A DNA stretch of 64,000 nucleotides from Acidobacteriota bacterium (GTDB lineage Bacteria > Acidobacteriota > UBA890 > WLXD01): NCBI GenBank assembly GCA_965205505.1, contig CBDBHB010000006.1:416001-480000 (forward strand). The letters run 5' to 3'. Below the pieces are notes generated by a model that worked only from the letters and a program-made list of their open reading frames with translations, was not told the DNA's origin and did no database searches. Below, in pieces: positions 1 to 17,197 of the stretch. The position numbers were made by a program, and so were the translations under genes. Within the stretch, counting starts at the first letter, position 1. Every line of letters begins with the position of its first letter.

Positions 1-1
1 C

Positions 2-955: not shown

Positions 956-1080
956 GCTGTTCGCCGGATCCGGATAGCTGTGCGGGGGGATTGGACGTTG
1001 GTCGGCCGACGTTGCAAGGTACTCGCCCGGGACTGCAACTTGCACCCCTCGAGAATCAACAACCCTAACGAAGCGCCGGA

Positions 1081-1650
1081 GTGAGCATGGCGACGAATCA
1101 CCGTATCGTCGATCTGGTCGGACACGATCGCAAGATGATCAGCCGACTCGGTCCGCTCGTCTTCGAAGCCCTCAAGCAACATTCTCCCAACTGGCTGCCG
1201 ACGGTCAACGACGCGACGCTAGAGATCCTGGAATCGCTGACTCCCGGACGCCTGAGCCGGGTACTGATCGATTCGGCAGGAGAGCCCGTGGGCTGGATCG
1301 GCATCATCCCTCATAGCGGTGGCCGCGTCTGGGAGATCCACCCGATTGCGGTTGCAACCGCGCACCAAGGCTACGGCTACGGGCGCGTGCTGATCGAGGA
1401 TATCGAGCGACACGCGCGCGAGCAGGGCGTTCTGACCCTGTGGGCCGGTACCAGCGACGAGATGGGATTGACCAACCTGGCCGACGTCGATCTATATGCC
1501 GATCCCGCGGGCGCTATCTCCGACATCGCCAGCATCAAGCCCCACGCATGGGAGTTCTGGGCCAGCGTCGGGTTCACCGTCGTAGGTCTCATGCCGGATG
1601 CGGAGGGACGGGGCAAGCCGAGCATCGTTCTGGCCAAGAGGGTGGATTGA
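1081..1650 (+). CDS. GNAT acetyltransferase, AAC(6')-Ia/Ii-like family
   Basis: Motifs WEIHPIAV, QGYGYGR (acetyl-CoA binding), LWAGTSDE and VVGLMPDAEGRGKPSIVLAK follow the AAC(6')-Ia pattern. An alternative ATG start is at 1087. Confidence 0.8.
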   Translation: MSMATNHRIVDLVGHDRKMISRLGPLVFEALKQHSPNWLPTVNDATLEILESLTPGRLSRVLIDSAGEPVGWIGIIPHSGGRVWEIHPIAVATAHQGYGYGRVLIEDIERHAREQGVLTLWAGTSDEMGLTNLADVDLYADPAGAISDIASIKPHAWEFWASVGFTVVGLMPDAEGRGKPSIVLAKRVD

Positions 1651-1653
1651 AAA

Positions 1654-2067
1654 GTGTTGAACGGCACTCGGTGGTTCTTACGCATCGCCTTGGCGGCCGG
1701 GTTTCTGTCGGCGACGGCGGATCGAGTCGGTCTGTGGGGAGCGCCAGGGGCCCCCGGCGTCGCCTGGGGAAAGTGGTCGGAGTTTCTGGATTACGTCGCG
1801 GCGCTCAACTGGTTCCTGCCGGCGTTCCTCATCCCGCTGGTGGGCTGGGTTGCCACGCTTGGCGAAATCGCTTGCGCGATCGCTCTCCTGGTAGGGTGGC
1901 GGTTGAAGTTGGCCGCATGCGCCAGCGGCGTGCTGCTGCTCTTGTTCGCGCTGACCATGGCCATCGCCGAGGGGATCAAGTCACCGCTGGATTCGTCGGT
2001 CTTCGCCGCCGCCGGCGGCGCCTTCCTGCTTGCGGCGGTGACGGCCGATGAGGATCGTTCCTGCTAA
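1654..2067 (+). CDS. DoxX family membrane protein
   Basis: FLRIALAAGFLSATADRVGLWG and AWGKW..F..Y motifs, about 4 TM helices. Confidence 0.8.
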   Translation: MLNGTRWFLRIALAAGFLSATADRVGLWGAPGAPGVAWGKWSEFLDYVAALNWFLPAFLIPLVGWVATLGEIACAIALLVGWRLKLAACASGVLLLLFALTMAIAEGIKSPLDSSVFAAAGGAFLLAAVTADEDRSC

Positions 2068-2509
2068 GCCGAGCTCAGGCTGACCGTCCCGGGTCCTGCT
2101 ACGAGTTCTGGAAGAGTAGGCCGAAGCGCTTTCCATCTTGCTTCGTGTCCTCCGTTGGCAGCTGACCGATAGGTTTTCGACCACGGTGTCGGCCTCGGGT
2201 TGTTTTGCAGGTGCCCGAGCTTGTGGTCCTGAGCTACGTAACCGAGCTTCATGTGCAGCTCTCGAGCTCCGGACAGTTCGACGGCCTGGGCATTGGCCGC
2301 GTGGCCTCGTCCAACGGACAGGCAACGGTGGGCTTGGGGCTCCATGTCGACAGCGCGCTGGCCGCCGCGGTTGCCAGCGGGGCGGTCGACCTCGACGGTG
2401 ACAGGCCAGCTCGCCGGTGTGTTCTCTGTCATCGGTACGTCGGCGAGCGATCGAATGCGGGTCTCGGTCGCCGTGGAGCAGGACACGTAGGCCGAGGCCA
2501 CTCAACGCG

Positions 2510-2630
2510 TAACGGCGAGGATCGCCTCCGTGGCGCCCCAGCCGCGTGTCGTCGGCGAGATATACCTCGCCCAAGCCACCGTTGCCGAGCAATGCGGTCA
2601 GCTCGTAGGGTCCGGGTAGGGTACCGATAG
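2510..2630 (-). pseudogene. Ser/Thr protein kinase N-terminal remnant
   Basis: The minus strand reads GTLPGPYELTALLGNGGLGEVYLADDTRLGR (kinase subdomain I), then degenerates before the VAIK motif. Confidence 0.7.
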
Positions 2631-2688
2631 GTGAGTAAGGCCCGCGCGGCTATCATGGCGCGCGGACCCATACGAAGGAGGCGACCCG

Positions 2689-4467
2689 ATGAACCAGAGA
2701 TCTCGGAGCGGCGGCCGTTGCGTGGTCGCGGTTGTTGGCATGGCGCTGGCTTCGTGTGGTGGCGGCGGGCCGACGGCAGAAGAGGCGGCCGACGTCGCGC
2801 TGGTCAACGGCAAGATCATCACCGTCGACGCCACCGATAGCGTTGCCGAGGCCGTTGCGGTGAAGGACGGTCGCATCGTCGCGGTCGGCTCGAGCGCCGA
2901 GATCGACACACTGGTCGGTGTATCCACCCGCAGGATCGATCTCGGTGGCCGGGCGGCAACGCCGGGGCTGCTCGACGCTCACGCTCACTTCGGCAACGGC
3001 CGCGCCACGCGCATGTTCGTACTCGATCTCAGTTACCCAGGTGTGACTTCGGTCGCCGATGTGGTCGACAAGGTCGCCGAGCGTGTCGCGCAGGCCGAGC
3101 CCGGCGACTGGATCCGCGGCCGTGGCTGGGACGAGGGCAAGTTCGAGGAGTTGCGCTACGTCACCGCAGCCGACCTCGACGCGATCGCTCCCGACAACCC
3201 CGTGTGGCTGACGCACACCATGGGGCACTATGGCACCGCCAACAGCCTGGCGATGGAGCTTGCCGGCGTTACCCGCGACACCCCGGATCCGCCCGGCGGC
3301 ACCATCGATCACGACGCCGACGGCAACGCCACGGGCGTGTTGAAGGAGCGCGCCCAGGGGCTGGTCAACGGTCTGATTCCACCGATGAGCCCCGAGCAGG
3401 TGCGCGAAGGCATGCGCGACCTGTCGCAGGCCTTCAACGCCGAGGGCATGACCGGGGTGAAGGACCCCGGCATCGGGCAGGCAACCTGGGACGCGTACGC
3501 CGACGTGCTCGCCGATGGCGACCTCTCGGTCAGGGTATTCGTCCTGTGGCGCAGCCGGGGAGACCTGAGCGACGCGGAGGCGTTGGCGGAGCGTGTGGGG
3601 CCGTTTACCAGGCCGTACGAATCGACCGGCGACGATCGTTTGATCTCCGGTGGTATCAAACTCATGATCGACGGCAGCGGCGGGGCGCGCACCGCCTGGA
3701 TGTACGACGACTGGAACCGCGATTTCGACCAGGTCGACATCGGCAATCGCGGCTACCCGGTGGAGCCGGCGGAGCTGATTCGCGACAAGATTCGGCTGTT
3801 CCACGACGCCGGCCTCCACGTCAGCACCCACTCGATCGGCGATCGAGGCATCGACTGGGTGGTCGACAGCTACGCCATGGCGCTCGAGGACAATCCCCGT
3901 CCCGGACTACGCCACGGCATTATCCACGCCAACATCCCCACCGACCACGCCATCGACACGATGGCGCGGCTACAGCGAGAGTTCGACGCCGGCTTCCCGG
4001 AGCCCTCGCCGCCCTTCATGTGGTGGATCGGCGATACCTACGCCGGCAACTTCGGCCCCGATCGGGCGTTGCGCCTCAACCCGTTCGCGACCTTTGTCGA
4101 GAAGGGCATCCCCTGGGCAAGTGCGTCCGATTTCAGCGTTACGCCGTTCGAGGCCCGCTATGGGTTGTGGGCGTCGGTGGCACGCGAGACCTTGCTGGGC
4201 GTGTACGGCGACAACCCGTACGGATCAGACGAGTCGGTGGATATCCGCACCGCGCTACGCTCCTACACCATCTGGAGCGCGCGCCAGATGTTCCTGGAGG
4301 ACAAGATCGGCTCGATCGAGGTCGGCAAGTACGCCGATATCGCGGTATGGGACCGTGACCCGTACACGGTGCCCACGGCCGACATCAAGGACATGGTGTG
4401 CGAGATGACGCTTTTCGACGGCCGCGTCGTGTACGTCAACCCGCAGACCACGCTCGACATTCCATAA
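2689..4467 (+). CDS. Amidohydrolase 3 (YtcJ-like), putative lipoprotein
   Basis: LASC lipobox; DAHAH, GGIKLMIDGS, HSIGDRG and GSIEVGKYAD motifs; GGAGG RBS. Confidence 0.9.
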   Translation: MNQRSRSGGRCVVAVVGMALASCGGGGPTAEEAADVALVNGKIITVDATDSVAEAVAVKDGRIVAVGSSAEIDTLVGVSTRRIDLGGRAATPGLLDAHAHFGNGRATRMFVLDLSYPGVTSVADVVDKVAERVAQAEPGDWIRGRGWDEGKFEELRYVTAADLDAIAPDNPVWLTHTMGHYGTANSLAMELAGVTRDTPDPPGGTIDHDADGNATGVLKERAQGLVNGLIPPMSPEQVREGMRDLSQAFNAEGMTGVKDPGIGQATWDAYADVLADGDLSVRVFVLWRSRGDLSDAEALAERVGPFTRPYESTGDDRLISGGIKLMIDGSGGARTAWMYDDWNRDFDQVDIGNRGYPVEPAELIRDKIRLFHDAGLHVSTHSIGDRGIDWVVDSYAMALEDNPRPGLRHGIIHANIPTDHAIDTMARLQREFDAGFPEPSPPFMWWIGDTYAGNFGPDRALRLNPFATFVEKGIPWASASDFSVTPFEARYGLWASVARETLLGVYGDNPYGSDESVDIRTALRSYTIWSARQMFLEDKIGSIEVGKYADIAVWDRDPYTVPTADIKDMVCEMTLFDGRVVYVNPQTTLDIP

Positions 4468-4491
4468 ACCTCACGCACTTCGGAGTTGAAT

Positions 4492-6774
4492 ATGCGTACC
4501 AATTGCCCGCCCCCGTTTCCCGCGTCGAGCGCGTTCATCGTCGCCGCTTTGCTGCTCGCCCCAACGCTTGCGGCCCCGGTCGAGGGCCAGGCCCCGGCCG
4601 ATGGGCCACGTGCCATGACCTTCCTCGACATGCAGCACATGGCTCGTGCCGGCTCCTTCACCCCTAGCCGCGACGGCAAGTGGATGCTGTACACGGTAAC
4701 CACACCCGATTGGGAGGAAGCGACGCAGCAGTCCGACATCCATTTGGTGTCACTGGAGCAGGGCGCCGCGTCGGGTCGTCGCATGACCTACACGGACGAC
4801 AAGAACGAGGGCTCCCCGGCATGGTCGCGCGACGGACGCTTCTTCGTGTTTGCTTCTGACCGCGACTCTGACGACGATAACGACCAGCTGTATCTGATGC
4901 GCCCGGATGGCGGCGAGGCGCGGCGAATCACGGATGCCGAGGACGGCGCGTCGAACTTCGCCTTCAGCGACGACGGCCAGTGGCTCGTCTACCGCAGCGG
5001 CGAGTCCGGCCGGGAGGAGCTGTTTCGACTTCCGGTGCAGGGCATCCACGCGGCCGTCGCCGAGCAGCTCACCGACGCCGCCGCCGGTGTCGAAGGCTGG
5101 GAGTGGGCTCCGGATAGCCGCCGGATCTACTTCGCCAGGCCCGATAGCGCCGATGCGGACGAGCGCTTGCGCACCGAGATGAAGTTCACCGTCGACGTTC
5201 GCAACCAGGAGACGCCGCTCTCGAGCCTGTGGGCGCTCGAGCTCGATTCGCTGGAGGCGACTCGGTTGACCGACAATGCGAGCATGAGCGTGGCGAGCTT
5301 CACGGTCTCCGACGACGGTCGCTGGGTGGGCTTCACGGGATCTTCGGCCGAGCGCTACGAGCGCAACATCACCGAGGAGCGTATCAACGCCGACCTCTAC
5401 CTGCTCGAGACCTCGACCGGGCATGTGGAGCGATTGACCGACAACCACGAGGTCGGTGAAGGCAGCATGAGCTTCTCGCCCGACGGGCGTCTGCTGGCGT
5501 TCTCCGCGCCCGGCGACATGCACGCCTACAGCATGAAGAACCGTCGCATCTACGTGCGCGAGGTCGAGGAGCGGGGCGGCGCGTTCCGCCAGGTCGGCAC
5601 CGGGTTCGATGGTCACGCCTCGCCGAGCTTCTGGTCCGACGACGGCGCGACCATCTTCTTCAACGGCGGCGTGCGTGTTACCAGCCAGCTTCACGGGGTC
5701 GACGTGGCCAACGATAGGGTGCAGCAGCTGACGCACGCAGAGGCCGCGCTCAGGGTCAGCCGCGACCGCGACTCCGGCGTGCTGCTGATCAACTACTCCG
5801 ATCCGAGCACCCCGCCGACGCTGTTCACGGTGGCCAGCGTCGAGGAGGTGGGCACGCGCTCGGCATGGAAGCAGCTCGTCGACGTCAACCGCCAGATAGA
5901 AGGCCTCGCCCTGGGCGAGGAGACCGAGGTCACCTGGACGTCGACCGACGGCAAGCAGGTCGGCGGCGTGCTGATGAAGCCGGTAGGCTACGAGGAAGGC
6001 AACCGCTACCCGCTCATCGTCGCCATCCACGGTGGCCCCGCCGGCGCCGACACGCTGCGGTTCAACGGCGGCTACGGATCACAGGTGTACGCTGGCGCCG
6101 GGTACGCGGTGTTGAAGCCCAACTACCGAGGCTCGTCCAACTACGGCGAGGAGCACCGCACCGCAATTGTCGGCAACTACTTTCCGCAGGGCTACGACGA
6201 CATCATGACCGGCGTCGACCACCTCATCGCCGAGGGCATAGTCGACCCCGGTCGCATGGGGGCGCTCGGCTGGAGCGCCGGCGGGCACTGGTCGAACTGG
6301 ATCCTCACCCACACCGACCGCTTCAAGGCGATCAGCTCCGGGGCGGGCACCTCGAACTGGATCTCGATGTACGCGCAGAGCGACGTACAGCGCAACCGCC
6401 AGTTCTACCTCGGCAACGACCTCCCGTACGACAACTACGACGCCTACTGGGAGCAATCGCCGATGAAGTACATCAAGAATGCCAAGACGCCGACGATGAT
6501 CCATGTGGTCGAGGGCGACCCGCGCGTTCCCAGCCCGCAGTCGGTCGAGCTGCACATGGCGCTCAAGAAGCTCGGTGTGCCGACCGAGCTGTACATGTAC
6601 CCGGGTCGCAGCCACGGCATCCCCGATCCGCGCAACCGGCTGGTGAAGTCGGTCAGCGAGATGGCGTGGATGGATTACTACGTGCGGGGCATCGGCGAGA
6701 AGTTCGCCTGGCGCGACGTGCTGAAGACACTCGAGGGCGAACCGGAAAAGACCGACGCGAACGGTGGCAGCTGA
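4492..6774 (+). CDS. S9 family serine peptidase with beta-propeller
   Basis: Signal peptide, PD40-like repeats, IHGGP, NYRGS, GWSAGG nucleophile, DPRV and SHG catalytic motifs. Confidence 0.92.
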   Translation: MRTNCPPPFPASSAFIVAALLLAPTLAAPVEGQAPADGPRAMTFLDMQHMARAGSFTPSRDGKWMLYTVTTPDWEEATQQSDIHLVSLEQGAASGRRMTYTDDKNEGSPAWSRDGRFFVFASDRDSDDDNDQLYLMRPDGGEARRITDAEDGASNFAFSDDGQWLVYRSGESGREELFRLPVQGIHAAVAEQLTDAAAGVEGWEWAPDSRRIYFARPDSADADERLRTEMKFTVDVRNQETPLSSLWALELDSLEATRLTDNASMSVASFTVSDDGRWVGFTGSSAERYERNITEERINADLYLLETSTGHVERLTDNHEVGEGSMSFSPDGRLLAFSAPGDMHAYSMKNRRIYVREVEERGGAFRQVGTGFDGHASPSFWSDDGATIFFNGGVRVTSQLHGVDVANDRVQQLTHAEAALRVSRDRDSGVLLINYSDPSTPPTLFTVASVEEVGTRSAWKQLVDVNRQIEGLALGEETEVTWTSTDGKQVGGVLMKPVGYEEGNRYPLIVAIHGGPAGADTLRFNGGYGSQVYAGAGYAVLKPNYRGSSNYGEEHRTAIVGNYFPQGYDDIMTGVDHLIAEGIVDPGRMGALGWSAGGHWSNWILTHTDRFKAISSGAGTSNWISMYAQSDVQRNRQFYLGNDLPYDNYDAYWEQSPMKYIKNAKTPTMIHVVEGDPRVPSPQSVELHMALKKLGVPTELYMYPGRSHGIPDPRNRLVKSVSEMAWMDYYVRGIGEKFAWRDVLKTLEGEPEKTDANGGS

Positions 6775-6788
6775 GAAGAGCGTTGGCC

Positions 6789-7095
6789 GTGTCCGAGGCC
6801 GCCGTACGATTCGACGATATCCACAAGAGCTACGGCGAGACCGTCGCGCTGTGCGGCGTGTCGTTCGAGGCTCGTTCTGGCGAGGCGTTCGGGCTACTGG
6901 GTCCCCAACGGTGCCGGCAAGACCAGCCTGATCGGGGTGCCAGTCTGGGAGCTGGCGCTGGCGCCGGGAATTCTGATCATCTCGACCTGGCTGGCGCTCA
7001 AGCTCGGGGCGCGGCTGTTTCGCATCGGGCTGCTGGCGCTCGGTAGCCGTCCGAAGCTGAACGAAATCTGGCGTCAGGCGCGCCTATCTAGATGA
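6789..7095 (+). pseudogene. Deleted ABC transporter operon remnant (ATPase N-terminus joined to permease C-terminus)
   Basis: IHKSYGETVAL..VSF..GEAFGLLGP/NGAGKT has a +1 shift in Walker A. It is followed directly by a NatB/YhaP-like permease tail (ARLFRIGLLALGSRPKLNEIWR). Confidence 0.75.
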
Positions 7096-7188
7096 GATGA
7101 GAAGGCCAACCTCCTGAACGCAGTAGCCTGACGGCTCTGCAAACGTTTCTTCAAACGTAACGGGCTCGAAGCCCAAGGAGGTTGGCCG

Positions 7189-8234
7189 ATGAGGAGTGTA
7201 ACGATTGGACTGGACGTAAGCGACCGGTACAGCCGTATGTGCGTGCTCGACAGTAAGGGCAGGGTGATGGAGGAAGGGCGGGTGAGGACGAGCCCGGAGG
7301 GGCTGGCGAGGCGGTTCGGGTGCGAGGAGCCCGCTCGAGTAGTGCTGGAGGTTGGAACGCACTCGCCGTGGATGAGTGAGCAGTTGAAGCAACTGGGTCA
7401 TGAGGTGCTGGTGGCTAACCCGAGGCGGCTGAAGCTGATCTATGGCGAGCACGACAAGACCGACCGGTTGGATGCCGAGCACCTGGCACGAGTGGGCAGA
7501 ATGGACCCAAAGCTGCTTAAGACGGTGCAGCATCGAGGCAGACAAGCGCGAGCGGATCTAGCCGTGATTCGGAGCCGAGATGCTCTGGTAAAGAGCCCAC
7601 GCAGTTGGTGAGCCATGTGCGTGGTGCGGTCAAGTCGGCCGGTTGTCGTATTCCCAGGTGCTCGACGCCGGCGTTCGCGCGCACCGCGCCAGAGCACATA
7701 CCGGAGCGGCTCAAGGGAGCGCTCGAGCCGGTGCTTGAAACGATCGCCATGCTGACGGGCAACATCCAGCAATACGAGCGTCAGATCGTGCAGCTGTGCC
7801 AGGGGCGATACCCGGAGACACAGCAGCTCCAGCAAGTGGCCGGGGTCGGAGCTCTGACCGCACTGGCGTATGTGCTGACGCTCGAGGAGCCGGAGCGGTT
7901 CAATACCTCCAGAGCCGTGGGCCCGTACCTGGGACTGAGACCGAAGAAACGGCAGTCGGGGGACAAGGACCCTGCGCTACGAATAACCAAGGCGGGCGAC
8001 AAAATGCTCCGACGCCTGTTGGTGGGCTCGGCGCATTACATCCTGGGCCCCTTCGGGCCCGATACTGAGCTCAGACGCTGGGGGCTCAAGCTGGCCGGAC
8101 GCGGTGGTCCTCATGGCAACAAAAAGGCAGCAGTTGCTGTCGCCCGTAAGCTCGCCGTTGTGCTGCACCGACTGTGGCTGAGTGGAGACGAGTACGAACC
8201 GTTGCGCGCACCTGTAGAGGTTTCAGCAGCATGA
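7189..8234 (+). pseudogene. IS110-family DEDD transposase/recombinase, frameshifted near 7597
   Basis: IGLDVS, VVLEVG and KTDRLDA in 7189-7611; GVG..TA, YLGLRPKKRQSG and KKAAVAVARKL in 7605-8234. One base is missing at AAGAGC-C-CACGCAG. Confidence 0.88.
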
Positions 8235-8480
8235 ACTAACCCGCAACCAGGAGGTCGGTAGGGCGACGCGACCCAACGGTTATCGATCTGACCGCCCGGT
8301 CCGGGCGACTGCGAAGGTCACTACGAGCTTCGAGCTCGGCAGCTAGATTGCAGCGCCTCGAATCGGGACGGACCCCAGAATGCACCGGACGACCTGAATC
8401 CTCGTCCACCAGAGTGCGAATAGGAGCATGGCGTGCAGATCGATTCTTCGCTGGCCACCACATTGCCCTTGACCGAACTA
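8235..8480 (+). ncRNA. Candidate seekRNA/bridge RNA in the IS1111 3' non-coding region
   Basis: The position is typical of IS1111. Short segments flanking hairpins match the reconstructed target and donor junctions. Confidence 0.55.
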
Positions 8481-8494
8481 GGCCTTCTCATAGA

Positions 8495-8770
8495 AGTGGC
8501 CTGTAGCAGATGATCGTTGCCTATCGCAGATGGGATTTGCGGGTGAGATCAAGGCGCGGCGAGGAAGGCGATGCAGAGGGCATCGTCGACGAGGCGCAAC
8601 GCCGATATCGCCCGCAACTGCCCATCTGTCCGGAGGATGGCGGCGAAATCGGCCCGTCTGCGGCGTTGCTCCTCCTCCAAGATGGGCAAACATCGTCTCG
8701 TCGTCGCGCCTGGCATCCGGACCCATTTCGCCACCACGATACGCAACGATCATCTGTTACAGACCACTAG
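8495..8770. repeat. ~278-bp palindromic MITE/REPIN-like element, copy 1 (left tip split by the IS)
   Basis: 34-bp terminal arms match at 31/34 once CT 7088-7089 is rejoined. CTAG ends and two internal hairpins. Confidence 0.8.
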
Positions 8771-8774
8771 TGGC

Positions 8775-9545
8775 CTATTTCCGTCGGCTCGGAACTGGAA
8801 CCTGAAGAACTTGGCCGGGGTAGATGCGCGTCGACTGCAGCGCGTTGTTGGACTGGATACGGTCGGTCGTTGTGCCGTGGTTCTGCGCGATTCTCCAGAG
8901 CGTGTCACTACGACTCACTCTGTAGGCCACGACATCGGTGAATCCGGTGCCGGAACGCGGACTCGACCGGCCGACAAGTTGCCGCACATACTCGGCATAC
9001 TGGCGTGGGAACAGCGCCACGTGGTAGTGCGGCGGGTGTTTCTCGGCCGCGGCCTCGAGCACGCCGCGCTCTTCGAGCGACAGCAGGATTCTCTCGAGCC
9101 AGCTACGACACGACGGCTTGTTGTGCCGCCGCAGGTCGATTGCCATCCCGGTCGGGTGTACCGACCGGGGCGATGCGTTGCGCGGCTGACCGGTTTGCGG
9201 GCGCGTCAGGCTGGTGACCACCAGTTGCTCGCCGCAGGCGGCGCGAAACTGCGCCGCCAACCGCTCGGTGAAGAGCTTTACCTCCGGCCGCGCGTAGGGG
9301 TATGAGAGATCCTTGAGGGTGTAGTCGCGATTGCCGCGCAGCTGCACCAGCAAGCCGGCGCTTACGAACCGGGAAACGTGCGTTCCGTCGCGCATGAACG
9401 TGAAGTCGTGCACGCTAGCCTGGTGGTTCTGGCGGTCCATCGAGCTGCGGCTGCCACGGAGGCTCTGCGCGTCCGCCGCGCTTGCAGACAGTGCCAGCCC
9501 GACAAGAGCAGCAAGAAGATATGAGACTGTCTTTTGAATCGTCAA
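8775..9545 (-). CDS. DUF5715-like (M15-type zinc peptidase fold) protein with C-terminal LysM
   Basis: Signal peptide; VTSLTR, SVHPTGMAIDL and PPHYHV motifs; LysM YRVSRSDTLWRIA..IYPGQVL. Start is uncertain (TTG 9545; ORF open to 9614). Confidence 0.8.
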   Translation of the reverse strand: MTIQKTVSYLLAALVGLALSASAADAQSLRGSRSSMDRQNHQASVHDFTFMRDGTHVSRFVSAGLLVQLRGNRDYTLKDLSYPYARPEVKLFTERLAAQFRAACGEQLVVTSLTRPQTGQPRNASPRSVHPTGMAIDLRRHNKPSCRSWLERILLSLEERGVLEAAAEKHPPHYHVALFPRQYAEYVRQLVGRSSPRSGTGFTDVVAYRVSRSDTLWRIAQNHGTTTDRIQSNNALQSTRIYPGQVLQVPVPSRRK

Positions 9546-9700
9546 AATATTGTTGAGTCGTGAAAACACGTTAAACCAAGGCCAACAATTGTTGAAGATG
9601 CTATAAGCTATCATTAGCTAGTTTCACCTAACAAGAGTTTGTTGAACACGTTTATTGACCGCGAAGAATCGCCATGCGCTAGCTGATGATTCGGATTGGG
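9546..9700. promoter_or_regulatory. AT-rich divergent promoter region
   Basis: Sharp GC drop between divergent genes, palindrome CAACAATTGTTG, repeated TTGTTGA and AACACGTT. Confidence 0.5.
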
Positions 9701-9727
9701 CCCGGCGTGTGCCACTATGATTTGTGC

Positions 9728-10969
9728 ATGGCCGAAACAGCAGAACCCCGAAGTGGCCTGGTAGGGCAAGGACGTGGCCAACAGCGGCCAGCAGTGCGCA
9801 GCAATGCGCCTGCGGCGCAGTCAATGGCTGGCAAGGTCCTGGGCGCGGTCCGCGCCAGACATTCCGAGGCGGTGGAATTTCTTCGGAAGCTCGTTTTCGC
9901 CGAGACCCCGACGCTCGAGCCGCATACACAGACCGTGGCGCTCCAGCAGCTCACCGAGGGGCTGGCGGCGGCCGGTCTCCGGTGTCGGCGACATTCGGGC
10001 TACACCAGCGGCGGCATGCTGTTGGCTAGCTGGCCACGCCAGCGGCGTTCGTCGCTGCAGTTGCTGATCGGCCACTGCGACACTGTTTGGCCGCTCGGCA
10101 CACTCGAGACCATGCCGGTCGAGATAGAGGGATCGCGCATGCGGGGCCCCGGCGTGTATGACATGAAATGCGGTGTAACGCAGACGGTGTATGCGTTGCA
10201 CGTGTTGCGGGACCTCGGCTTGGAGCCCGAGGTCAAGCCGGTGGTGTTCATCAACTCCGACGAAGAGATCGGTAGCCACGATTCCGAGAAGTACATTCGG
10301 TGGCTCGCCGGCTGTGTCGACCGAGCCTACGTCATGGAGCCGTCGCTGACGTCGGCAGGCTGGCTGAAAACGGCCCGCAAGGGGGTGCGGCAGTATCGAG
10401 TCAAAGTAACTGGCCGGGCGGCTCACGCCGGGTTGAATCCTGAGGAGGGAGTGAGCGCCATCTTGGAGATGTCGCGTCTGGTGGAAGAGCTGTTCGCGCT
10501 CAACGACGCCCAGCGCGGTATCAGCGTAAACGTCGGGATCATCGGTGGCGGAACGCGCTCGAACGTCATCGCTGCCGAGTGTGTGGCAGATGTCGACGTG
10601 CGCGTTCCGACGCTCGATGACGCGTCGCGGGTCGACGCCGCGATCCGCAGCCTGACGACCACGCACCCGGCCGCAACCGTGCAGGCGGTTCAAGCGCAAG
10701 GACGGTCGCCCATGGAGCAGACCGCCGGCGGGAAGTCGCTTTGGGACGCCGCGCGGCGTCACGCCGAGAGCCTGGGCTTTGAGCTCGAGCACGGACGCGC
10801 CGGCGGCGGATCGGACGGCAACATAACCAACCTCTACACGCCGACGCTCGACGGGCTCGGCGCCGTCGGCGACGGCGCGCACGCCTCGCATGAATATGTC
10901 GATCTCGAGCAGATGGTCGAACGTACGGCGCTGCTGGTGTTGCTTTTGTTGGAGCCGCCACTCTCGTGA
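9728..10969 (+). CDS. M20 metallopeptidase (carboxypeptidase G2-like)
   Basis: GHCDTVW, GPGVYDMK, SDEEIGS, GGGSDGN and GAHASHE motifs. Start is uncertain. Confidence 0.9.
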   Translation: MAETAEPRSGLVGQGRGQQRPAVRSNAPAAQSMAGKVLGAVRARHSEAVEFLRKLVFAETPTLEPHTQTVALQQLTEGLAAAGLRCRRHSGYTSGGMLLASWPRQRRSSLQLLIGHCDTVWPLGTLETMPVEIEGSRMRGPGVYDMKCGVTQTVYALHVLRDLGLEPEVKPVVFINSDEEIGSHDSEKYIRWLAGCVDRAYVMEPSLTSAGWLKTARKGVRQYRVKVTGRAAHAGLNPEEGVSAILEMSRLVEELFALNDAQRGISVNVGIIGGGTRSNVIAAECVADVDVRVPTLDDASRVDAAIRSLTTTHPAATVQAVQAQGRSPMEQTAGGKSLWDAARRHAESLGFELEHGRAGGGSDGNITNLYTPTLDGLGAVGDGAHASHEYVDLEQMVERTALLVLLLLEPPLS

Positions 10970-11532
10970 CCCTGCGCATACCCGTCGTGCTGGGCAGCAT
11001 TCGCCAGGGTCGCAACACGCCACGGCTGGCACGCTTCATTCTGCGCAAGCTCGGAGAGCGCGACGATGTGCAATCAGACTTGATCGACCTGCGCCGGCTG
11101 GAGCTTCCGCTGGTCGAAGAACGGTTGCGTTTTCTCGACGAGCCGCCGCCTGGGCTGACTGCGCTGAGCGAACACATCGACCGCGCCGACGCGGTGGTCA
11201 TTGCCACGCCGGAATACAACAAGGGTTACCCGGCGGCGCTCAAGAACGCCATCGATGCATTGGGCTCGGAATGGCGTCGCAAGCCCGTCGGAATCGTGGC
11301 CCACTCGGTGGGGGCGTTCGGTGGCATGGTGGTGCTGCAACAACTTCGCATTGTCCTCATGAACCTGGGGGCCGTGCCGATTCCCGCCGCGATGACCGTG
11401 CCGAACATCGAGCACACCCTCGACGTGGATGGTGCGGCGCTCGACGAGGCCTTCGAGGGCCGGGGTGGCCGCTTCGTCGACGAGCTGCTCTGGTACGCGC
11501 GAGCGCTGAGAAATGCTAGCGCAGACGGATGA
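10966..11532 (+). CDS. NADPH-dependent FMN reductase
   Basis: LGSIRQGR and TPEYNKGYPAALKNAID motifs. Confidence 0.92.
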   Translation: MTLRIPVVLGSIRQGRNTPRLARFILRKLGERDDVQSDLIDLRRLELPLVEERLRFLDEPPPGLTALSEHIDRADAVVIATPEYNKGYPAALKNAIDALGSEWRRKPVGIVAHSVGAFGGMVVLQQLRIVLMNLGAVPIPAAMTVPNIEHTLDVDGAALDEAFEGRGGRFVDELLWYARALRNASADG

Positions 11533-11637
11533 CATCAGAGTCGCAGAGCCGGCTCGAATTGCTCCTCTGACGCGGCTGTCGTAAGCTCCCGTGACTCTGT
11601 TTTGGTCTAGTCCCACCGCGCGAGGCAAGATGCGTTC

Positions 11638-13422
11638 ATGAGCGTCCCCGAGGAGAAGTTCGTCGACGAGGCTGGGCCCGATGATGCCCACGCACACGGC
11701 GAGAGCTTCATCTGGAAGTACGTCTTCTCGACCGATCACAAGACCATCGGGATCCAGTACGGCCTGACGGCTCTGTGCTTTCTGTTGTTCGGCTTCTGCC
11801 TGATGCTGCTGATGCGCTGGCAGCTGGCCTCGCCTGGCGCGCCCATACCCATCATCGGCGGCTTCCTGGGCCAGGCAAACGCGCCGGGCGGCATCATGCT
11901 GCCGGAGTTCTACAACCAGCTCGGTGCCATGCACGGCACCATCATGGTGTTCCTCGCCATCGTGCCGATGATCGTCGGCGCCTTCGGCAACTACGTCGTG
12001 CCGCTGCAGATCGGCGCCCCCGACATGGCGTTCCCGAAGCTCAACATGGCGAGCTACTGGTTCTACTTCGTCGGTGGCGTGGTCATGCTGGCGAGCTTCT
12101 TCCTTCCCGGCGGTGCGGCGAACTCGGGCTGGACCTCATACGCACCGCTCTCGATTATCGCCACGATGGGACAGACGGCGTGGCTGATCGGCATGATCTG
12201 CCTGATCAACTCGTCGCTGCTCGGATCGATGAACATCATCGTGACCATCTTCCAGCTGCGCGCGCCGGGTCTTACCTGGATGCGACTGCCATTTTTCGTC
12301 TGGGCGCAGCTGGTCACCTCGTTCTTGCTCGTGCTGGCGTTCCCGCCGCTCGAAGCGGCGGGGGCGATGCAGCTCATGGATCGCCTCGCCGGCACCAGCT
12401 TCTTCATGCCCAGCGGCCTCTACGTGTCGGGGCAGATTCTCGAGTATGCCGGTGGCGGCTCGGTGCTGCTGTGGCAGCATCTCTTCTGGTTCCTGGCGCA
12501 CCCAGAGGTTTACGTGCTAGTCCTGCCGGCGATGGGCATCGTCGCCGAGGTGATTGCCAACAACACCCGCAAGCCGCTTTGGGGCTACAAGGCGCTGGTG
12601 TACTCGACGGTGTTTCTCGGCTTCATGTCCTTCGTCGTGTGGGCGCACCACATGTTCATGACCGGCATGGGCACGGTGATCAGCGCCTTTTTCCAGACCA
12701 CCACGATGATCATCTCGATCCCGTCGGTGGTGATCTTGACGGCCTTGCTGATCTCTCTGTGGGGCGCCTCGATCCGCTTCAACACGCCGATGTTGTTCGC
12801 GCTGGCTTTCCTGCCCATGTTCGGCATCGGCGGGCTGACAGGGCTGCCGCTCGGTCTGGCGCCAGCGGACATCCACCTCCACGACACGTACTACGTGATC
12901 GGGCATTTCCATTATGTCGTGGCGCCCGGAACCATCTTCGGCATCTTCGCCGGCATCTACTACTGGTTCCCGAAGATTACCGGCCGGATGATGAACGAAG
13001 TGCTTGGCAAGCTGCACTTCTGGGGGTCGCTGGTCTTCATTAACTGCATCTTCGCACCGATGTTCCTGCAGGGGTTGGCCGGCGTATCACGGAGGCTGTA
13101 CGACGGTGGCGCCCAGTACTCGCACGCCCAGCCCGTGCTGCACTGGAACACCTTCATCTCGTACTCGGCGTTCCTACTGGCGGCGGCGCAGATCCTCTTC
13201 ATCGTCAACTTCCTGTGGAGCATCTTCCGCGGCAAGCGCGCGACCGCCAACCCGTGGGAGGCCACCACGATCGAGTGGACGGCTACCACCTCGCCGCCGC
13301 TCGGACACGGCAACTTCGAGACCCTGCCGAAGGTGTACCGGGGTCCCTACGAGTACAGTGCGCCCGGTGCAGAGGACAGCTTCATCGCTCAGGATGCGGC
13401 GCCCGCGCCGCAGGGGGGATAG
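11638..13422 (+). CDS. ctaD: Cytochrome c oxidase subunit I (A1-type HPEVY)
   Basis: DHKTIG, MHGTIM, PDMAFP, HPEVY, WAHHM and HDTYYVIGHFHY motifs. Confidence 0.97.
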   Translation: MSVPEEKFVDEAGPDDAHAHGESFIWKYVFSTDHKTIGIQYGLTALCFLLFGFCLMLLMRWQLASPGAPIPIIGGFLGQANAPGGIMLPEFYNQLGAMHGTIMVFLAIVPMIVGAFGNYVVPLQIGAPDMAFPKLNMASYWFYFVGGVVMLASFFLPGGAANSGWTSYAPLSIIATMGQTAWLIGMICLINSSLLGSMNIIVTIFQLRAPGLTWMRLPFFVWAQLVTSFLLVLAFPPLEAAGAMQLMDRLAGTSFFMPSGLYVSGQILEYAGGGSVLLWQHLFWFLAHPEVYVLVLPAMGIVAEVIANNTRKPLWGYKALVYSTVFLGFMSFVVWAHHMFMTGMGTVISAFFQTTTMIISIPSVVILTALLISLWGASIRFNTPMLFALAFLPMFGIGGLTGLPLGLAPADIHLHDTYYVIGHFHYVVAPGTIFGIFAGIYYWFPKITGRMMNEVLGKLHFWGSLVFINCIFAPMFLQGLAGVSRRLYDGGAQYSHAQPVLHWNTFISYSAFLLAAAQILFIVNFLWSIFRGKRATANPWEATTIEWTATTSPPLGHGNFETLPKVYRGPYEYSAPGAEDSFIAQDAAPAPQGG

Positions 13423-13425
13423 GCG

Positions 13426-14010
13426 ATGGACATTCCCTACACTGTCGAAGCGCGGCCCGACACCGGCCTTTACAACGCCAAGCTCGGAATCTGGTTGTTT
13501 CTGGCGTCCGAGGTGATGCTGTTCGGGGCACTGTTCTCGTCGTACATCCTGCTCAGGACCAGCGACCCCAACTGGTACCACGCCGACCTCAACGTCCCGA
13601 TGGCCACGTTGAACACCATGTTTCTGATCACCTCGTCGGTGACCGTGGTGCTGTCGTGGGCGTCACTGCGCCTCAACGACTTCGCCAAGTTCAAGTTGTG
13701 GGGAATCGCTACCTTCCTGCTCGCTTCGGCGTTCATGGTGGTCAAGGCCTTCGAGTACAACGAGGAGTTCACCCACGGTCTGTATCCCGCCACCAACAAT
13801 TTCATGGCGGTGTACTTCACCATGACCGGCCTGCACGGGCTGCACGTGCTCGGCGGCATGATCGTGATCGCCTACCTCCTAGGTCCTGGCGCCAAGATGT
13901 GGAACACGGCGCCCGAGCGGTTCACGAATCGCGTCGAGACCTTCGGCCTGTACTGGCACTTCGTCGATCTGGTGTGGATCTTCCTGTTTCCCGCCCTGTA
14001 CCTGCTTTAG
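13426..14010 (+). CDS. ctaE: Cytochrome c oxidase subunit III
   Basis: WLFLASEVMLF, TGLHGLHV and YWHFVDLVW motifs. Confidence 0.95.
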   Translation: MDIPYTVEARPDTGLYNAKLGIWLFLASEVMLFGALFSSYILLRTSDPNWYHADLNVPMATLNTMFLITSSVTVVLSWASLRLNDFAKFKLWGIATFLLASAFMVVKAFEYNEEFTHGLYPATNNFMAVYFTMTGLHGLHVLGGMIVIAYLLGPGAKMWNTAPERFTNRVETFGLYWHFVDLVWIFLFPALYLL

Positions 14011-14019
14011 GGAGCCCCG

Positions 14020-14361
14020 ATGAGCGGCCACAGCCCGGAAGAGATCCAGCAGGAAGTGCGTAAGTACTTCATGGTCTTCGGCGCCCTGGCAGTGCTGACG
14101 GCGGTGACCGTCGCGGTCAGCTACCTCGACCTGACGTCCGGTTTGGCGGTAACCCTGGCGATGATTATCGCCACCGTCAAGGGGTCGCTGGTTGCCGGTT
14201 ACTTCATGCACCTGCTCGACGAGAAGAAGCTCATATACAGCATCCTGTTGTTGACCCTCATGTTCTTCATCGTGCTGATGGGCCTGCCGGCGGGGACCAT
14301 AGCCGACACGACGGGCGAACCGATCCACGCAGCCGCACCGACGTCCCCGGCGGAGCATTGA
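14020..14361 (+). CDS. ctaF: Cytochrome c oxidase subunit IV
   Basis: 3 TM helices, KGSLVAGYFMHL motif. Confidence 0.88.
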   Translation: MSGHSPEEIQQEVRKYFMVFGALAVLTAVTVAVSYLDLTSGLAVTLAMIIATVKGSLVAGYFMHLLDEKKLIYSILLLTLMFFIVLMGLPAGTIADTTGEPIHAAAPTSPAEH

Positions 14362-14362
14362 G

Positions 14363-14566
14363 ATGTCGTTGAAGTCGTTTCACGTGGTGTTCATCTGTGC
14401 TTCGATCGTCCTCTGCTTCATGGTCGGCGCCTGGGCACTCCAGCAGTATCGACTCTCCGACGAGACCGGGCACCTGTGGTTGGCGGTGGTGTTCTACGCG
14501 AGCGGCGTAGCCCTGGTGGCCTACGGCCTACGGTTCGTACGCAAGATCCGGGAGCTGGGAATCTGA
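14363..14566 (+). CDS. Small 2-TM membrane protein in the cox operon
   Basis: Tightly packed with its neighbours, hydrophobic, begins MSLKSFHVVFI. Confidence 0.7.
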   Translation: MSLKSFHVVFICASIVLCFMVGAWALQQYRLSDETGHLWLAVVFYASGVALVAYGLRFVRKIRELGI

Positions 14567-14829
14567 TGCTTAGCCGGGTGGCTTCGATCGTGATACTGAC
14601 CGCCTCGGCGGCGCTCGTTCCGGCCGTCGCCGAGGCGTGCCCGGTCTGTTATGGCGATATCGGCGGTCCGGCGGCGCGCGGCATCAACAACGGAATCCTG
14701 TCGATGCTGGCCGTGGTCGGCGTCGTTCAGATCGGCTTCGTAATGCTGTTCGTGGGCATGTGGCGCCGCGGCAAGCTGCTGCGCGAGCGTAAGGAGAGCT
14801 TCAAGGTGATTGACGGAGGCGTGCGATAA
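14566..14829 (+). CDS. Small exported/membrane protein with CPVC motif
   Basis: ATG overlaps the upstream TGA. Signal peptide ends AEA, followed by CPVCYG and one TM helix. Confidence 0.7.
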   Translation: MLSRVASIVILTASAALVPAVAEACPVCYGDIGGPAARGINNGILSMLAVVGVVQIGFVMLFVGMWRRGKLLRERKESFKVIDGGVR

Positions 14830-15690
14830 ATGCTCTCGCTCATGCAGCAGTGGATGCCGGTAAATGGTGCGGCCCACGGACAGGCGCTGGACGAGATGTC
14901 GGCGCTAGTGCATTGGGTGATGCTGATCTTGTTCGTCGGCTGGGGGCTCTACTTCGCTTACGTCCTGTTTCGTTTCCGCGCCGGCGCCAATCCGCGCGCC
15001 AGCTACAAGGGCGCCACCAGCCACTTCTCACAGTACGTCGAGGTCAGCGTCGGCGTCATCGAGGTGGTGTTGCTGGTTTTCTTCGCCATTCCGGCGTGGG
15101 CGAGCTGGGTCGACCCGCCGGCCGACGGCGAGGCACTCGAGATCCGCGTGGTCGCCGAGCAGTTTCTGTGGAACGTTCAGTACAGCGGACCCGACGGTGT
15201 CTTCGGTCGTACCGGGCTCGAGTTCATTACGCCGACCAACACCATCGGGATCGACCGCTCGGACCCCTATGCGGTCGACGACGTTATCTCGACCAACCAG
15301 CTGCATCTGCCGGTAGATCGACCGATCACGCTGCTGCTGTCCTCGAAGGACGTGATCCACAGCTTCGCCCTGCAGCAGATGCGTGTGAAGCAGGACATCA
15401 TCCCCGGTCTCATGATCCCGGTGCATTTCACCCCGATCATGGTGACGCCGGAGGAGTCGGCGTATCCGGCCTGCGCCGGCGACAAGACGTGCTGGGAGAT
15501 CACCTGCGCACAGCTTTGCGGCCTCGGCCACTTCCGCATGCGCGGCTTTTACACCATCTACGAGCAGGCGGATTTCGATGCCTGGATGGCTGAACAAGTT
15601 GCCGCAGTCATGCCCGCGCCCGCAGCGGTCGAGGCAGAGGCAGCAGACGAGGAAGCCGAGCCGGAACCGGTCGTCCAGGGGGAGCAGTAG
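14830..15690 (+). CDS. ctaC: Cytochrome c oxidase subunit II
   Basis: 2 TM helices, DVIHSF, CuA motif CAQLCGLGHFRM. Confidence 0.95.
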   Translation: MLSLMQQWMPVNGAAHGQALDEMSALVHWVMLILFVGWGLYFAYVLFRFRAGANPRASYKGATSHFSQYVEVSVGVIEVVLLVFFAIPAWASWVDPPADGEALEIRVVAEQFLWNVQYSGPDGVFGRTGLEFITPTNTIGIDRSDPYAVDDVISTNQLHLPVDRPITLLLSSKDVIHSFALQQMRVKQDIIPGLMIPVHFTPIMVTPEESAYPACAGDKTCWEITCAQLCGLGHFRMRGFYTIYEQADFDAWMAEQVAAVMPAPAAVEAEAADEEAEPEPVVQGEQ

Positions 15691-15752
15691 AGTCGGCAAG
15701 CCCCGAGAGACGGCGGTCTAGCAACGGGAGGTTAGGCCATGAGGCTGTTCTC

Positions 15753-17177
15753 TTGACCTCGAACCGCCGACCTGAGGCTGCTGCTTCCGCAGTTGCTGGC
15801 CGATGTACCGTACTGCTCGTTGGTATCGCGATCGGCGCCTGTACCGGCGGAGCCACGCTTCCGATCACCGTAGGCGACCTGGCGATTACGCACGTCACCG
15901 TCCTGCCCATGGACGGCACCGAACGGCTCGTCGACCAGACGGTGGTGGTCGCTGGGGAGCGCATCGTTGCCGTGGAGGCGACTGGAACGGTAGGGCTCGC
16001 TCCGGACACAACCGTGGTCGATGCAGCGGGCAAGTACCTGATGCCCGGCATGGTCGAGATGCACGGGCACTATCCACAGGACGCCGAGGGACAGTTCACG
16101 CGCGACATCCTGTTTCTCTACGTTGCCAACGGCGTCACGTTGGTCCGCGGCATGCAGGGCGGTCCGCAGCACTTGCCGCTACGGGAGTCATTGGCCCGCG
16201 GCGAGCTCGTCGGCCCCCGAATCCTCGTCAGCGCGCCGATGTTGCACGGCCAGAACGTGACCGAGCCCGACCAGGCGATTGAGCTGGTGCGACGTGCCAG
16301 TGCCGCCGGATTCGACCATCTCAAGGTGCACGAGGATCTCAGCCGCGAGGTCTACGACGCCATTGCGGACACCGCCAACGAAATCGGTATCACCTTCTCG
16401 GGGCACGTGACCAACCACGTGGGTCTGTATCACGCCCTCGCGAAGGGTCAACTGACGATCGACCACCTCGACAACTACCTCGAAGCGCTCGTCGACGACC
16501 AGCAAGCGGTGGCTGATCTGGGTCTCTTCGATCTCGGGCAGCTGGCTGGCCGCATCGACGACACCAAGATAGCTGACGCTGTGACGGCGACGGCCGAGGC
16601 CGGCGCGGGTGTGGTGCCCACCATGGCGCTCTGGGAGGTGCTCTTCGGTGCTCGCCGCGGCGAGGAGTGGTTGGAGATGCGCCCCGAGACTCGTTACATG
16701 CCGCCCCAGATGGTCGACAGTTGGATCCAGGGAACCAATCAGCGTGTCGAGCAGCTGGGCGCAGATCGCGAGGCCGTATCGAACATCCTGGCGCTACGCC
16801 GCCGGGTGTTGAAGGCGCTCCACGATGCGGGCGTACCGGTGCTGCTGGGTACCGATTCACCGCAGATCTTCAGCGTGCCCGGGTTCTCGATCCACCACGA
16901 GATGGCGCTGATGGTGGAATCTGGGTTGACGCCCTACGACGTGCTGTTTGCGGGTACGCAGGCGGTAGCGCAATTCTATGGCGATACTGACGACTACGGC
17001 TCAGTGGCGGTCGGCCGCCGTGCCGACCTGGTGTTGCTGAACGCCGATCCGGCCGACGACGTGAGCAACTTCGCCAATCGGTCCGGGGTAGTGGTCAACG
17101 GCCGGTGGATCAGCGAAGAAGAGATTCAGGAGGAGCTCGAGACGATCGCGGCTCGTGCGGTCGAGACAAACCAGTGA
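15753..17177 (+). CDS. Amidohydrolase family protein, putative lipoprotein
   Basis: IGAC lipobox; PGMVEMHGH, LLGTDS and GSVAVGRRADLV motifs. Confidence 0.85.
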   Translation: MTSNRRPEAAASAVAGRCTVLLVGIAIGACTGGATLPITVGDLAITHVTVLPMDGTERLVDQTVVVAGERIVAVEATGTVGLAPDTTVVDAAGKYLMPGMVEMHGHYPQDAEGQFTRDILFLYVANGVTLVRGMQGGPQHLPLRESLARGELVGPRILVSAPMLHGQNVTEPDQAIELVRRASAAGFDHLKVHEDLSREVYDAIADTANEIGITFSGHVTNHVGLYHALAKGQLTIDHLDNYLEALVDDQQAVADLGLFDLGQLAGRIDDTKIADAVTATAEAGAGVVPTMALWEVLFGARRGEEWLEMRPETRYMPPQMVDSWIQGTNQRVEQLGADREAVSNILALRRRVLKALHDAGVPVLLGTDSPQIFSVPGFSIHHEMALMVESGLTPYDVLFAGTQAVAQFYGDTDDYGSVAVGRRADLVLLNADPADDVSNFANRSGVVVNGRWISEEEIQEELETIAARAVETNQ

Positions 17178-17197
17178 TCGCCTAGCTGGCCAACGAC

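Follow-up and report, generated by a model that had tools for sequence, protein, structure and literature searches.

In the 64,000-nucleotide stretch of DNA analyzed here (the window; Acidobacteriota bacterium, contig CBDBHB010000006.1, positions 416,001 to 480,000), we found an insertion sequence (IS), assigned by its sequence to the IS1111 group of the IS110 family, whose 3' non-coding region very probably encodes a two-armed bridge RNA or seekRNA, about 150-180 nt long and closed by an outer stem. The region (8235-8480) is the non-coding stretch from the transposase stop codon to the right repeat of the element. We observed consistent element boundaries, a target consensus, a conserved and structured RNA, and covariation of its guide segments with the flanks of each homologous element. 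A preliminary description of the region had proposed the guide RNA of an IS110/IS1111 recombinase; all the strings it relied on (GGTCACTA, CGAGCTTCGAGCTCG, GCAGCTAG, CTCGTC at 8401-8406 and ATAGGAG) are present where it placed them, and its main proposal agrees with a conserved two-armed RNA whose loops match the flanks and the element's own ends.

A BLAST search of the element's own genome (G000, 9 contigs, 5.98 Mb) showed 33 matches: 27 full and six partial copies. Full copies are 1405 or 1406 bp long, with 1406 bp in the 10 copies that have an open 348-aa transposase frame. The left flank is CTAG in 25 of the 27 full copies and TTAG in one, and in the remaining copy CTAG is found five bases further left; the right flank is TGGCC in 26 copies and TGACC in one. 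All 27 begin with A(T/G)GAGATGAG, and they end with CATAGAAG (21 copies) or CTTAGAAG (six copies). This consistency of flanks and ends shows that the target and donor junctions, which had previously been assumed, are real. Not all 27 sites are independent, since some copies have flanks in common through the duplication of large segments, and the right flank belongs to a repeat family. AG is present at both junctions, ctAG/ATGAG... and ...ATAGAAG/TGGCC (the slash marks the boundary; here AG at 7090-7091 and 8495-8496), and therefore the core dinucleotide is AG and each boundary is ambiguous by 2 nt. The AG core, as first suggested, also holds in the guide segments: AG ends both 3' guides, the 5' target guide contains its complement CT, and the donor guide has AA in relatives whose core is AA.

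Homologues were obtained from 34 matching genomes among 401 searched in the same phylum, and further copies were added; an initial search of genome contigs with a single protein found one relative only (L021), and the wider genome search was used instead. The RNA frame was compared downstream of transposases with 46-70% identity to that of this element. No part of the analysis included L026 (unpublished genome G152). The counts also leave out further copies of already counted elements (L052-L055, L057 and L059), one locus with a truncated 3' end (L061), and seven loci with 30-36% identity in which the anchor motifs were not found (L043, L045-L048, L050 and L051).

Both strands of the target loop follow the flanks of the element that carries them. 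In the window, the RNA segment GGUCACUA (8316-8323) forms seven Watson-Crick pairs and one G:U with 5'-TAGTGGCC-3', the top strand T-AG-TGGCC, and the site of the single copy beside TGACC is a perfect match to this 5' target guide. CTAG at 8343-8346 has the same sense as the left flank and core, and would pair with the bottom strand; the 3' target guide is effectively CUAG only, since the 27 copies show no conservation to the left of CTAG. Covariation was measured in the homologues with 14-nt and 10-nt anchor windows, as the longest matching run against each element's flank. The 5' guide, compared with the reverse complement of the core and right flank, showed a mean run of 6.90 nt against its own flank and 3.51 nt against non-self flanks (n = 20), while the 3' guide showed mean runs of 5.81 and 3.34 nt, respectively, against left flanks (n = 16), with 0 of 20,000 permutations on each side. 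Close relatives with a common target were left in, which raised the non-self scores and made the test harder. Longest runs on the right side were 10 nt in L023 and L027, and 9 nt in L033, L035, L038 and L042; on the left side they were 9 nt in L056, 8 nt in L037, and 7 nt in each of L028, L029, L030, L032, L038, L058 and L060. The right-flank test omitted L024, L031, L032 and L036 (right end not found or contig end) and L039 (variant stem), and the left-flank test omitted L041, L042, L044, L049 and L034 (left end not found), L024 and L036 (less than 15 nt of flank), and L025, in which the anchor rule failed and a 6/6 match was seen by eye.

Covariation across homologues, the check named in the preliminary description, was thus found on both sides, and both GGTCACTA and the segment ending in CTAG behave as the guides it took them for. 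Its caution that the matches were short and could be chance no longer applies to the target segments, which covariation places beyond chance, nor to ATAGGAG of the donor arm, the homologous segment being identical to the element's own right end in 19 of 21 elements. In the element of genome G112, a 16-nt pattern of the unoccupied site had seven matches versus 0 in a control; these seven sites fix the boundary, so that its left end begins ATAAGG as in the rest of the family. An alternative G112 boundary, shorter by one CAG, was rejected, since its 13-nt pattern had no match.

The homologues share a common RNA frame. Its target half consists of GACTGCG, a variable segment of 8-10 nt, a hairpin, a variable segment of 8-9 nt ending in AG, and AT(G/T)GCAGC; its donor half consists of TGCAC, a hairpin, GTGCG and (A/G/C)AT(A/G)GAA(G/A). 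The covariance model R1, built from 24 sequences, matches 29 of the 34 sources (the window and 33 homologue loci), down to 31-43% protein identity, including five loci outside its training set (L039, L021, L047, L045 and L048). It also matches 31 places in the element's own genome, all within IS copies. In alignment A2, whose fitting to the model favours structure, 68.8% of cells are paired versus 34-41% with the partners slid, and a plain MAFFT alignment shows 65.1% versus 34-41%. Compensatory changes occur at 35 of 46 pairs in A2, with a covariation score of 0.281 versus 0.130 in shuffles, a score reached in none of 500 shuffles. RNAalifold recovers the stems, and the minimum free energy (MFE) fold of the single sequence shows two arms within a 9-bp outer stem (8282-8290 with 8436-8444). 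The best-kept stems are TGCAC with GTGCG in the donor arm and the upper target-arm stem, GACTGCG with GCAGC, in which 97% of cells are paired (225/232, A2 columns 30-38 with 104-111) and six of eight pairs show compensatory changes. Among the 27 copies, the guide segments are invariant except for one copy changed at 8423. In L039 (G266:C38), CGAC with GTCG replaces CTGC with GCAG in the target-arm stem. The right flank of the same locus repeats about 50 nt of its own element's non-coding region, which may mean that the element sits inside another copy or lies in tandem with one.

In the donor arm, the 7-mer after GTGCG is identical to the element's own last seven bases, core included, in 19 of 21 elements, and the two exceptions are this element (ATAGGAG versus ATAGAAG) and L058. 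Two variable positions of the 7-mer agree with the right end in all 21 elements. Each of these changes only once on the transposase tree, so that the 21/21 agreement amounts to two coupled events, and the donor covariation was not accepted as strong evidence. If the donor arm follows the layout of the target arm, its 5' guide would be expected directly upstream of TGCAC. The 4-nt segment there, CCCA in most elements, is a candidate complementary to left-end nt 2-5; these are TGGG in most relatives and TGAG here, which leaves one C.A mismatch. The CCCA segment changes in step with the left end in L029 (CTCA and TGAG), L023 (CTTA and TAAG), L036 (ACCA and TGGT) and L040 (TCCA and TGGA).

The second arm is laid out like the target arm (stem, 5' strand, distal hairpin and 3' strand ending in the core), its 7-mer follows both the A/G change and the change of core from AG to AA, and, according to PMC11208160, 93.0% of the IS1111 elements in ISfinder have a predicted two-loop bridge RNA in their right end. 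These observations make it unlikely that only the 80-nt target arm (8292-8371) works, as a short seekRNA, with the protein reading the ends through the subterminal repeats; the second arm would then serve RNA processing or stability, and would resemble the right end through common ancestry or as a protein-binding sequence. That alternative would fit the two single events behind the donor covariation, the weak 5' donor guide, and the report in PMC11187229 that the 82-nt seekRNA of ISEc11 alone moved a mini-IS more efficiently than the 154-nt form.

Within a two-armed RNA, the preliminary description had assigned the donor loop differently, with CTCGTC (8401-8406) guiding the left end GATGAG and CAC-CAGA-GTG forming a small hairpin between the donor guides. 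We consider this assignment very improbable. Apart from one G.T, CTCGTC is the reverse complement of GATGAG, and L035 has CTCATC at a similar place; however, it belongs to the 3' arm of a hairpin in which TCGTCC (8402-8407) pairs with GGACGA (8387-8392). In 23 of 24 homologues a hairpin of at least 4 bp is found at this position with unrelated sequences (GAGCTC, GGCCC, GAGCG and others), although all of their left ends retain GATGAG or a near variant. Likewise, GTGCG does not close a small hairpin: its partner, in 97.9% of cells, is TGCAC, located 33 nt upstream. Only ATAGGAG, which copies the right end, is retained from the donor loop as first described.

Several observations weigh against the proposed guide RNA. 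Misfitting homologues are found on the right (longest runs of 3 nt in L040, 4 nt in L044, and 5 nt in L029 and L056) and on the left (3 nt in each of L027, L033, L035 and L040), and in L036 the 5' guide, inspected by eye and unscored, shows no flank match beyond the element's own degenerate right end; such homologues may be near-cognate or decayed insertions. The element's own guides are imperfect, with a G:U in the 5' target guide, a 3' target match of only 4 nt (CTAG), a G.T in the 3' donor guide and a C.A in the candidate 5' donor guide. For the latter, the self score was 4.05 versus 3.70 non-self, and 112 of 20,000 permutations reached the observed value; donor covariation on the other strand is thin, given the single changes described above. 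The outer and basal stem pairs are only 57-69% paired (outer stem 57%), in a poorly aligned part of the RNA. No Rfam match was found at E up to 1 in 6800-9000, and no sigma-70-like promoter was found in the linear element in a scan of 7000-8600. Furthermore, the transposase frame is broken here, and this copy could act only with enzyme from another copy. Even so, it is scarcely credible that there is no guide RNA, the region being a structured 3' untranslated region or a protein-binding DNA end with chance flank matches: the matches in this element are short (8 nt with wobble, 4 nt, and 7 nt with a mismatch) and the fold is not exceptional (z of -1.5 for 8235-8496 and -2.3 for 8280-8450), but almost every homologue spells out a different flank at the same two alignment positions, the stems are maintained by compensatory changes, and the protein family is annotated as, and experimentally known as, RNA-guided.

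The transposase gene consists in this copy of two overlapping open reading frames (ORFs): 7189-7611, with a PF01548 domain (DEDD_Tnp_IS110, 1.3e-15), and 7605-8234, with a PF02371 domain (Transposase_20, 3.3e-17). The frameshift is caused by the loss of one G after 7597, a loss found in five of the 27 copies, and a second frameshifting deletion, of 4 bp at 7454-7457, is found in 12. Since the 348-aa frame is open in 10 of the 27 full copies of the same genome, a repaired transposase, mentioned in the preliminary description, is not needed. The two recurrent deletions and six common substitutions make eight common polymorphisms, and the 27 copies carry them in 26 different combinations. This mosaic points to gene conversion between copies or to a consensus-polishing artefact of a multi-copy repeat, and because it also fits repeat polishing, the frameshift of this particular copy is not necessarily reliable. 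Mobilisation of frameshifted copies in trans, as a reading of the common deletions (12 and five copies), was rejected, since the mosaic fits conversion or polishing as well as descent.

The protein encoded by an intact 348-aa copy (L006:1777-2823) scored 205.5 bits against NF033542, "IS110 family RNA-guided transposase" (cut-off 140), with residues 5-333 on positions 1-341 of the 343-position profile. Residues D9, E54, D92, D95 and S257 align by HMMER with catalytic positions of the ISCro4 transposase (9t56), with a weak N-terminal stretch (8 bits), and the protein also aligns with the IS621 transposase (8wt6, E 5.9e-08) in the C-terminal half only. The transposase family is large: 8000 of 8000 scored candidates had E <= 1e-20. 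According to PMC11187229, the IS1111 group is characterized by subterminal repeats, a long non-coding region downstream of the transposase, a protein of 330-350 aa and the motif GL-P----S(t)G, and PMC11208160 gives 7-17 bp for the subterminal inverted repeats. All of these features were found: the repeats are 11 bp long, 100% complementary and 5 nt inside each end; non-coding DNA extends 262 nt downstream (8235-8496) versus 97 nt upstream of the gene (7092-7188); the protein has 348 aa; and the motif is present as GLRPKKRQSG (residues 249-258). Judged by these features, the element is a member of the IS1111 group of the IS110 family.

On its right, the element adjoins a miniature inverted-repeat transposable element (MITE), whose terminal inverted repeat (TGGCCTGTAGCAGATGATCG...) forms the target's right half; a second CTAG is found at the other MITE end (8767-8770), and the target site in longer form is CTAG/TGGCCTGTAACAG. 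The genome contains 145 unoccupied CTAGTGGCC sites, versus about 75 expected from base composition, and most are followed by the same MITE repeat. The orthologous site in the same-genus genome G118 (92% identical flank) shows one CTAG and neither MITE nor IS. On the basis of the right flank, the unoccupied CTAGTGGCC sites and the empty single-CTAG site, the element is read as homing to the boundary between the CTAG duplication of the MITE and its terminal repeat. Another IS1111-family element reportedly homes to the terminal repeat of another mobile element; here the host is a 270-bp MITE, and insertion is exactly at the CTAG boundary.

In IS1111 elements, the seekRNA was described as required and programmable, with a top-strand match preceding a bottom-strand match and both overlapping at the insertion point (PMC11187229). 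In IS621, the RNA was described as binding the recombinase, with loops that pair with opposite strands around the core and Ser-linked strand exchange (PMC11208158). From the published family, we infer that the RNA found here is made, binds the enzyme and directs recombination. In the target arm, an internal loop, the 5' strand GGUCACUA would pair with the top strand of the core and right half, and the 3' strand, ending in CUAG, with the bottom strand of the left half and core. In the donor arm (8372-8434), the 3' strand AUAGGAG would pair with the bottom strand of the right end and core (ATAGA-AG), and the 5' strand would probably contact left-end bases 2-5 through CCCA. The DEDD/Ser recombinase from open-frame copies of the same genome would bind this RNA and join the junction of right and left ends in the excised circle with CTAG/TGGCC, exchanging strands at the AG core and leaving the element between the CTAG duplication of the MITE and its terminal repeat.

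Circle-junction promoters have been described for the family (PMC11187229, PMC11208158). The TTGACC box listed in Table 1 is a candidate -35 box, and TTGAC is also found 17-18 nt before the right end in the homologues inspected by eye; this position would fit such a promoter. An additional feature of the target arm is AUU after the 3' target guide, AUG in most relatives. It is quite doubtful that these three bases lie outside the stem and act as a handshake-type extension, which, after the joining of the left target to the left end, would pair with the starting ATG of that end and would be the IS1111 counterpart of the IS621 handshake guides on the opposite guide: a full three-base match to the left end was seen by eye in only nine of 18 elements, and there is essentially no informative variation. 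If it were true, this extension and the non-Watson-Crick positions fixed in all four guides (31 RNA copies) would suggest guides tuned for strand exchange and not for maximal pairing.

As described in PMC11187229, the seekRNAs of ISEc11, ISKpn4, ISPa11 and ISPst6 resemble the RNA found here in lying downstream of tnp in elements with subterminal inverted repeats, and the IS1111 seekRNA elements share a protein of 330-350 aa, the GL-P----SG motif and the lack of an evident internal promoter. Compared from the text of that paper and not from folds, the order is also alike: the top-strand match is 5', a hairpin lies between, and there is overlap between the matches where insertion occurs. In both cases, natural retargeting of relatives has come about through replaced guide letters. 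The 82-nt short form of ISEc11 is comparable with the 80-nt target arm, and its 154-nt long form with both arms (143 nt, 8292-8434; 163 nt with the outer stem). In contrast to the IS1111 seekRNAs described there, the element belongs to another clade and host, is known here from sequence alone, and has the target CTAG/TGGCC at a MITE end, an AG core, a bottom-strand match of only 4 nt and a top-strand match with a G:U.

The IS621 bridge RNA, as described in PMC11208160 and PMC11208158, likewise has two internal loops with two guides each, which address opposite strands around a 2-nt core. The catalytic residues D11, E60, D102, D105 and S241 of IS621 have aligned counterparts in D9, E54, D92, D95 and S257, and in both cases the circle junction is expected to build a promoter. 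However, the RNA of IS621 is located in the left end with the bottom-strand (left) guide first, whereas the RNA found here occupies the right end and its top-strand guide precedes the other; the core, CT in IS621, is AG in this element; protein similarity is remote; and the handshake guides of IS621 are not demonstrable here.

RNA-guided IS1111 elements were described in 2024, and it is well supported that this element is another example, with a new target and retargeted relatives, and not a new system; the supplements of PMC11187229 or PMC11208160 may already list a close relative, and knowledge of the mechanism is unchanged by the finding. As a natural example of RNA-guided transposition, it combines 27 full copies, 145 unoccupied CTAGTGGCC sites and about 20 relatives with different guide-spelled sites, in a phylum that lies outside the groups from which characterized seekRNAs come, the enterobacteria and pseudomonads. 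One close protein relative comes from a genome that its source names a Gemmatimonadales metagenome-assembled genome. The relatives could serve as a natural retargeting series for IS1111 guide lengths, wobble tolerance and AG versus AA cores. Local features of the genome are also explained, namely the homing to MITE ends and the identical copies bordering large duplicated assembly segments.

Table 1. Features of the IS1111-group element, its predicted guide RNA and its target site (positions in the window).
Feature	Position	Strand	Evidence or remark
Left target half CTAG, last two bases = AG core; MITE target-site duplication	7088-7091	+	CTAG in 25/27 copies
IS1111-group insertion sequence, 1405 bp in this copy	7092-8496	+	Similarity of all copies stops at these bases (BLAST)
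Left subterminal inverted repeat ATGAGAAGGCC	7097-7107	+	100% complementary to 8481-8491
Left-end stem-loop, GGCCAACCTCCT pairing with AGGAGGTTGGCC	7104-7187	+	12-bp perfect inverted repeat
IS110-family DEDD transposase gene, frameshifted in this copy	7189-8234	+	Two overlapping ORFs
Predicted guide RNA (seekRNA/bridge RNA)	8279-8458	+	Limits set by covariance model R1; 139.5 bits
Outer closing stem, 5' arm, partner 8436-8444	8282-8290	+	9-bp MFE stem; equivalents by eye in several homologues
Target-loop stem, 5' strand, partner 8348-8371	8292-8314	+	MFE fold
5' target guide GGTCACTA	8316-8323	+	Covariation with core and right flank in homologues
Target-loop distal hairpin CGAGCTTCGAGCTCG	8324-8338	+	Fold and alignment; compensatory changes at 3/6 pairs (helix 3)
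3' target guide GCAGCTAG, effective match CTAG 8343-8346	8339-8346	+	Covariation with left flank in homologues
Target-loop stem, 3' strand	8348-8371	+	MFE fold and alignment statistics
Candidate 5' donor guide CCCA	8374-8377	+	Complementary to left-end nt 2-5; weak
Donor-loop distal stem, 5' strand TGCAC	8381-8385	+	97.9% of cells paired, 29 sequences; compensatory change at 2 pairs (helix 4)
Donor-loop distal hairpin GGACGA...TCGTCC	8387-8407	+	Contains CTCGTC; arms 8387-8392 and 8402-8407
Donor-loop distal stem, 3' strand GTGCG	8414-8418	+	Pairs with TGCAC 8381-8385
3' donor guide ATAGGAG	8420-8426	+	Same sense as right end and core ATAGAAG; one G opposite bottom-strand T
TTGACC, candidate -35 box of circle-junction promoter	8469-8474	+	18 nt before GAAG/AT at right end
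Right subterminal inverted repeat GGCCTTCTCAT	8481-8491	+	11 bp, perfect partner of 7097-7107
270-bp MITE-like repeat	8497-8766	+	32-nt terminal inverted repeat arms, 91% complementary

At the left end of the element, the second arm of the stem-loop, AGGAGGTTGGCC, covers the Shine-Dalgarno sequence directly before the transposase ATG at 7189. The pairing is kept in homologues with other letters, for example GGCCGGTCTCC with GGAGACCGGCC (by eye), and the loop also contains a small, conserved GGGCTCGAAGCCC hairpin. The stem is likely to mask translation of read-through transcripts.

Both flanks of the IS (1-7091 and 8497-18410 of the window) are duplicated elsewhere in the assembly beside other IS copies. 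The left flank corresponds to C6:513832-520923, inverted and 99.99% identical, and the right flank to C7:1-9915, 99.94% identical, where contig C7 starts. The duplicated flanks have two possible explanations: either the IS mediated a rearrangement or duplication, or the assembler collapsed alternative arrangements. Upstream of the IS, 6764-7095 shows the N-terminus of an ABC-transporter ATPase (Walker A, GPNGAGKTSL) fused to the apparent C-terminal end of a membrane permease, which suggests an internal deletion or a gene remnant adjoining the element.

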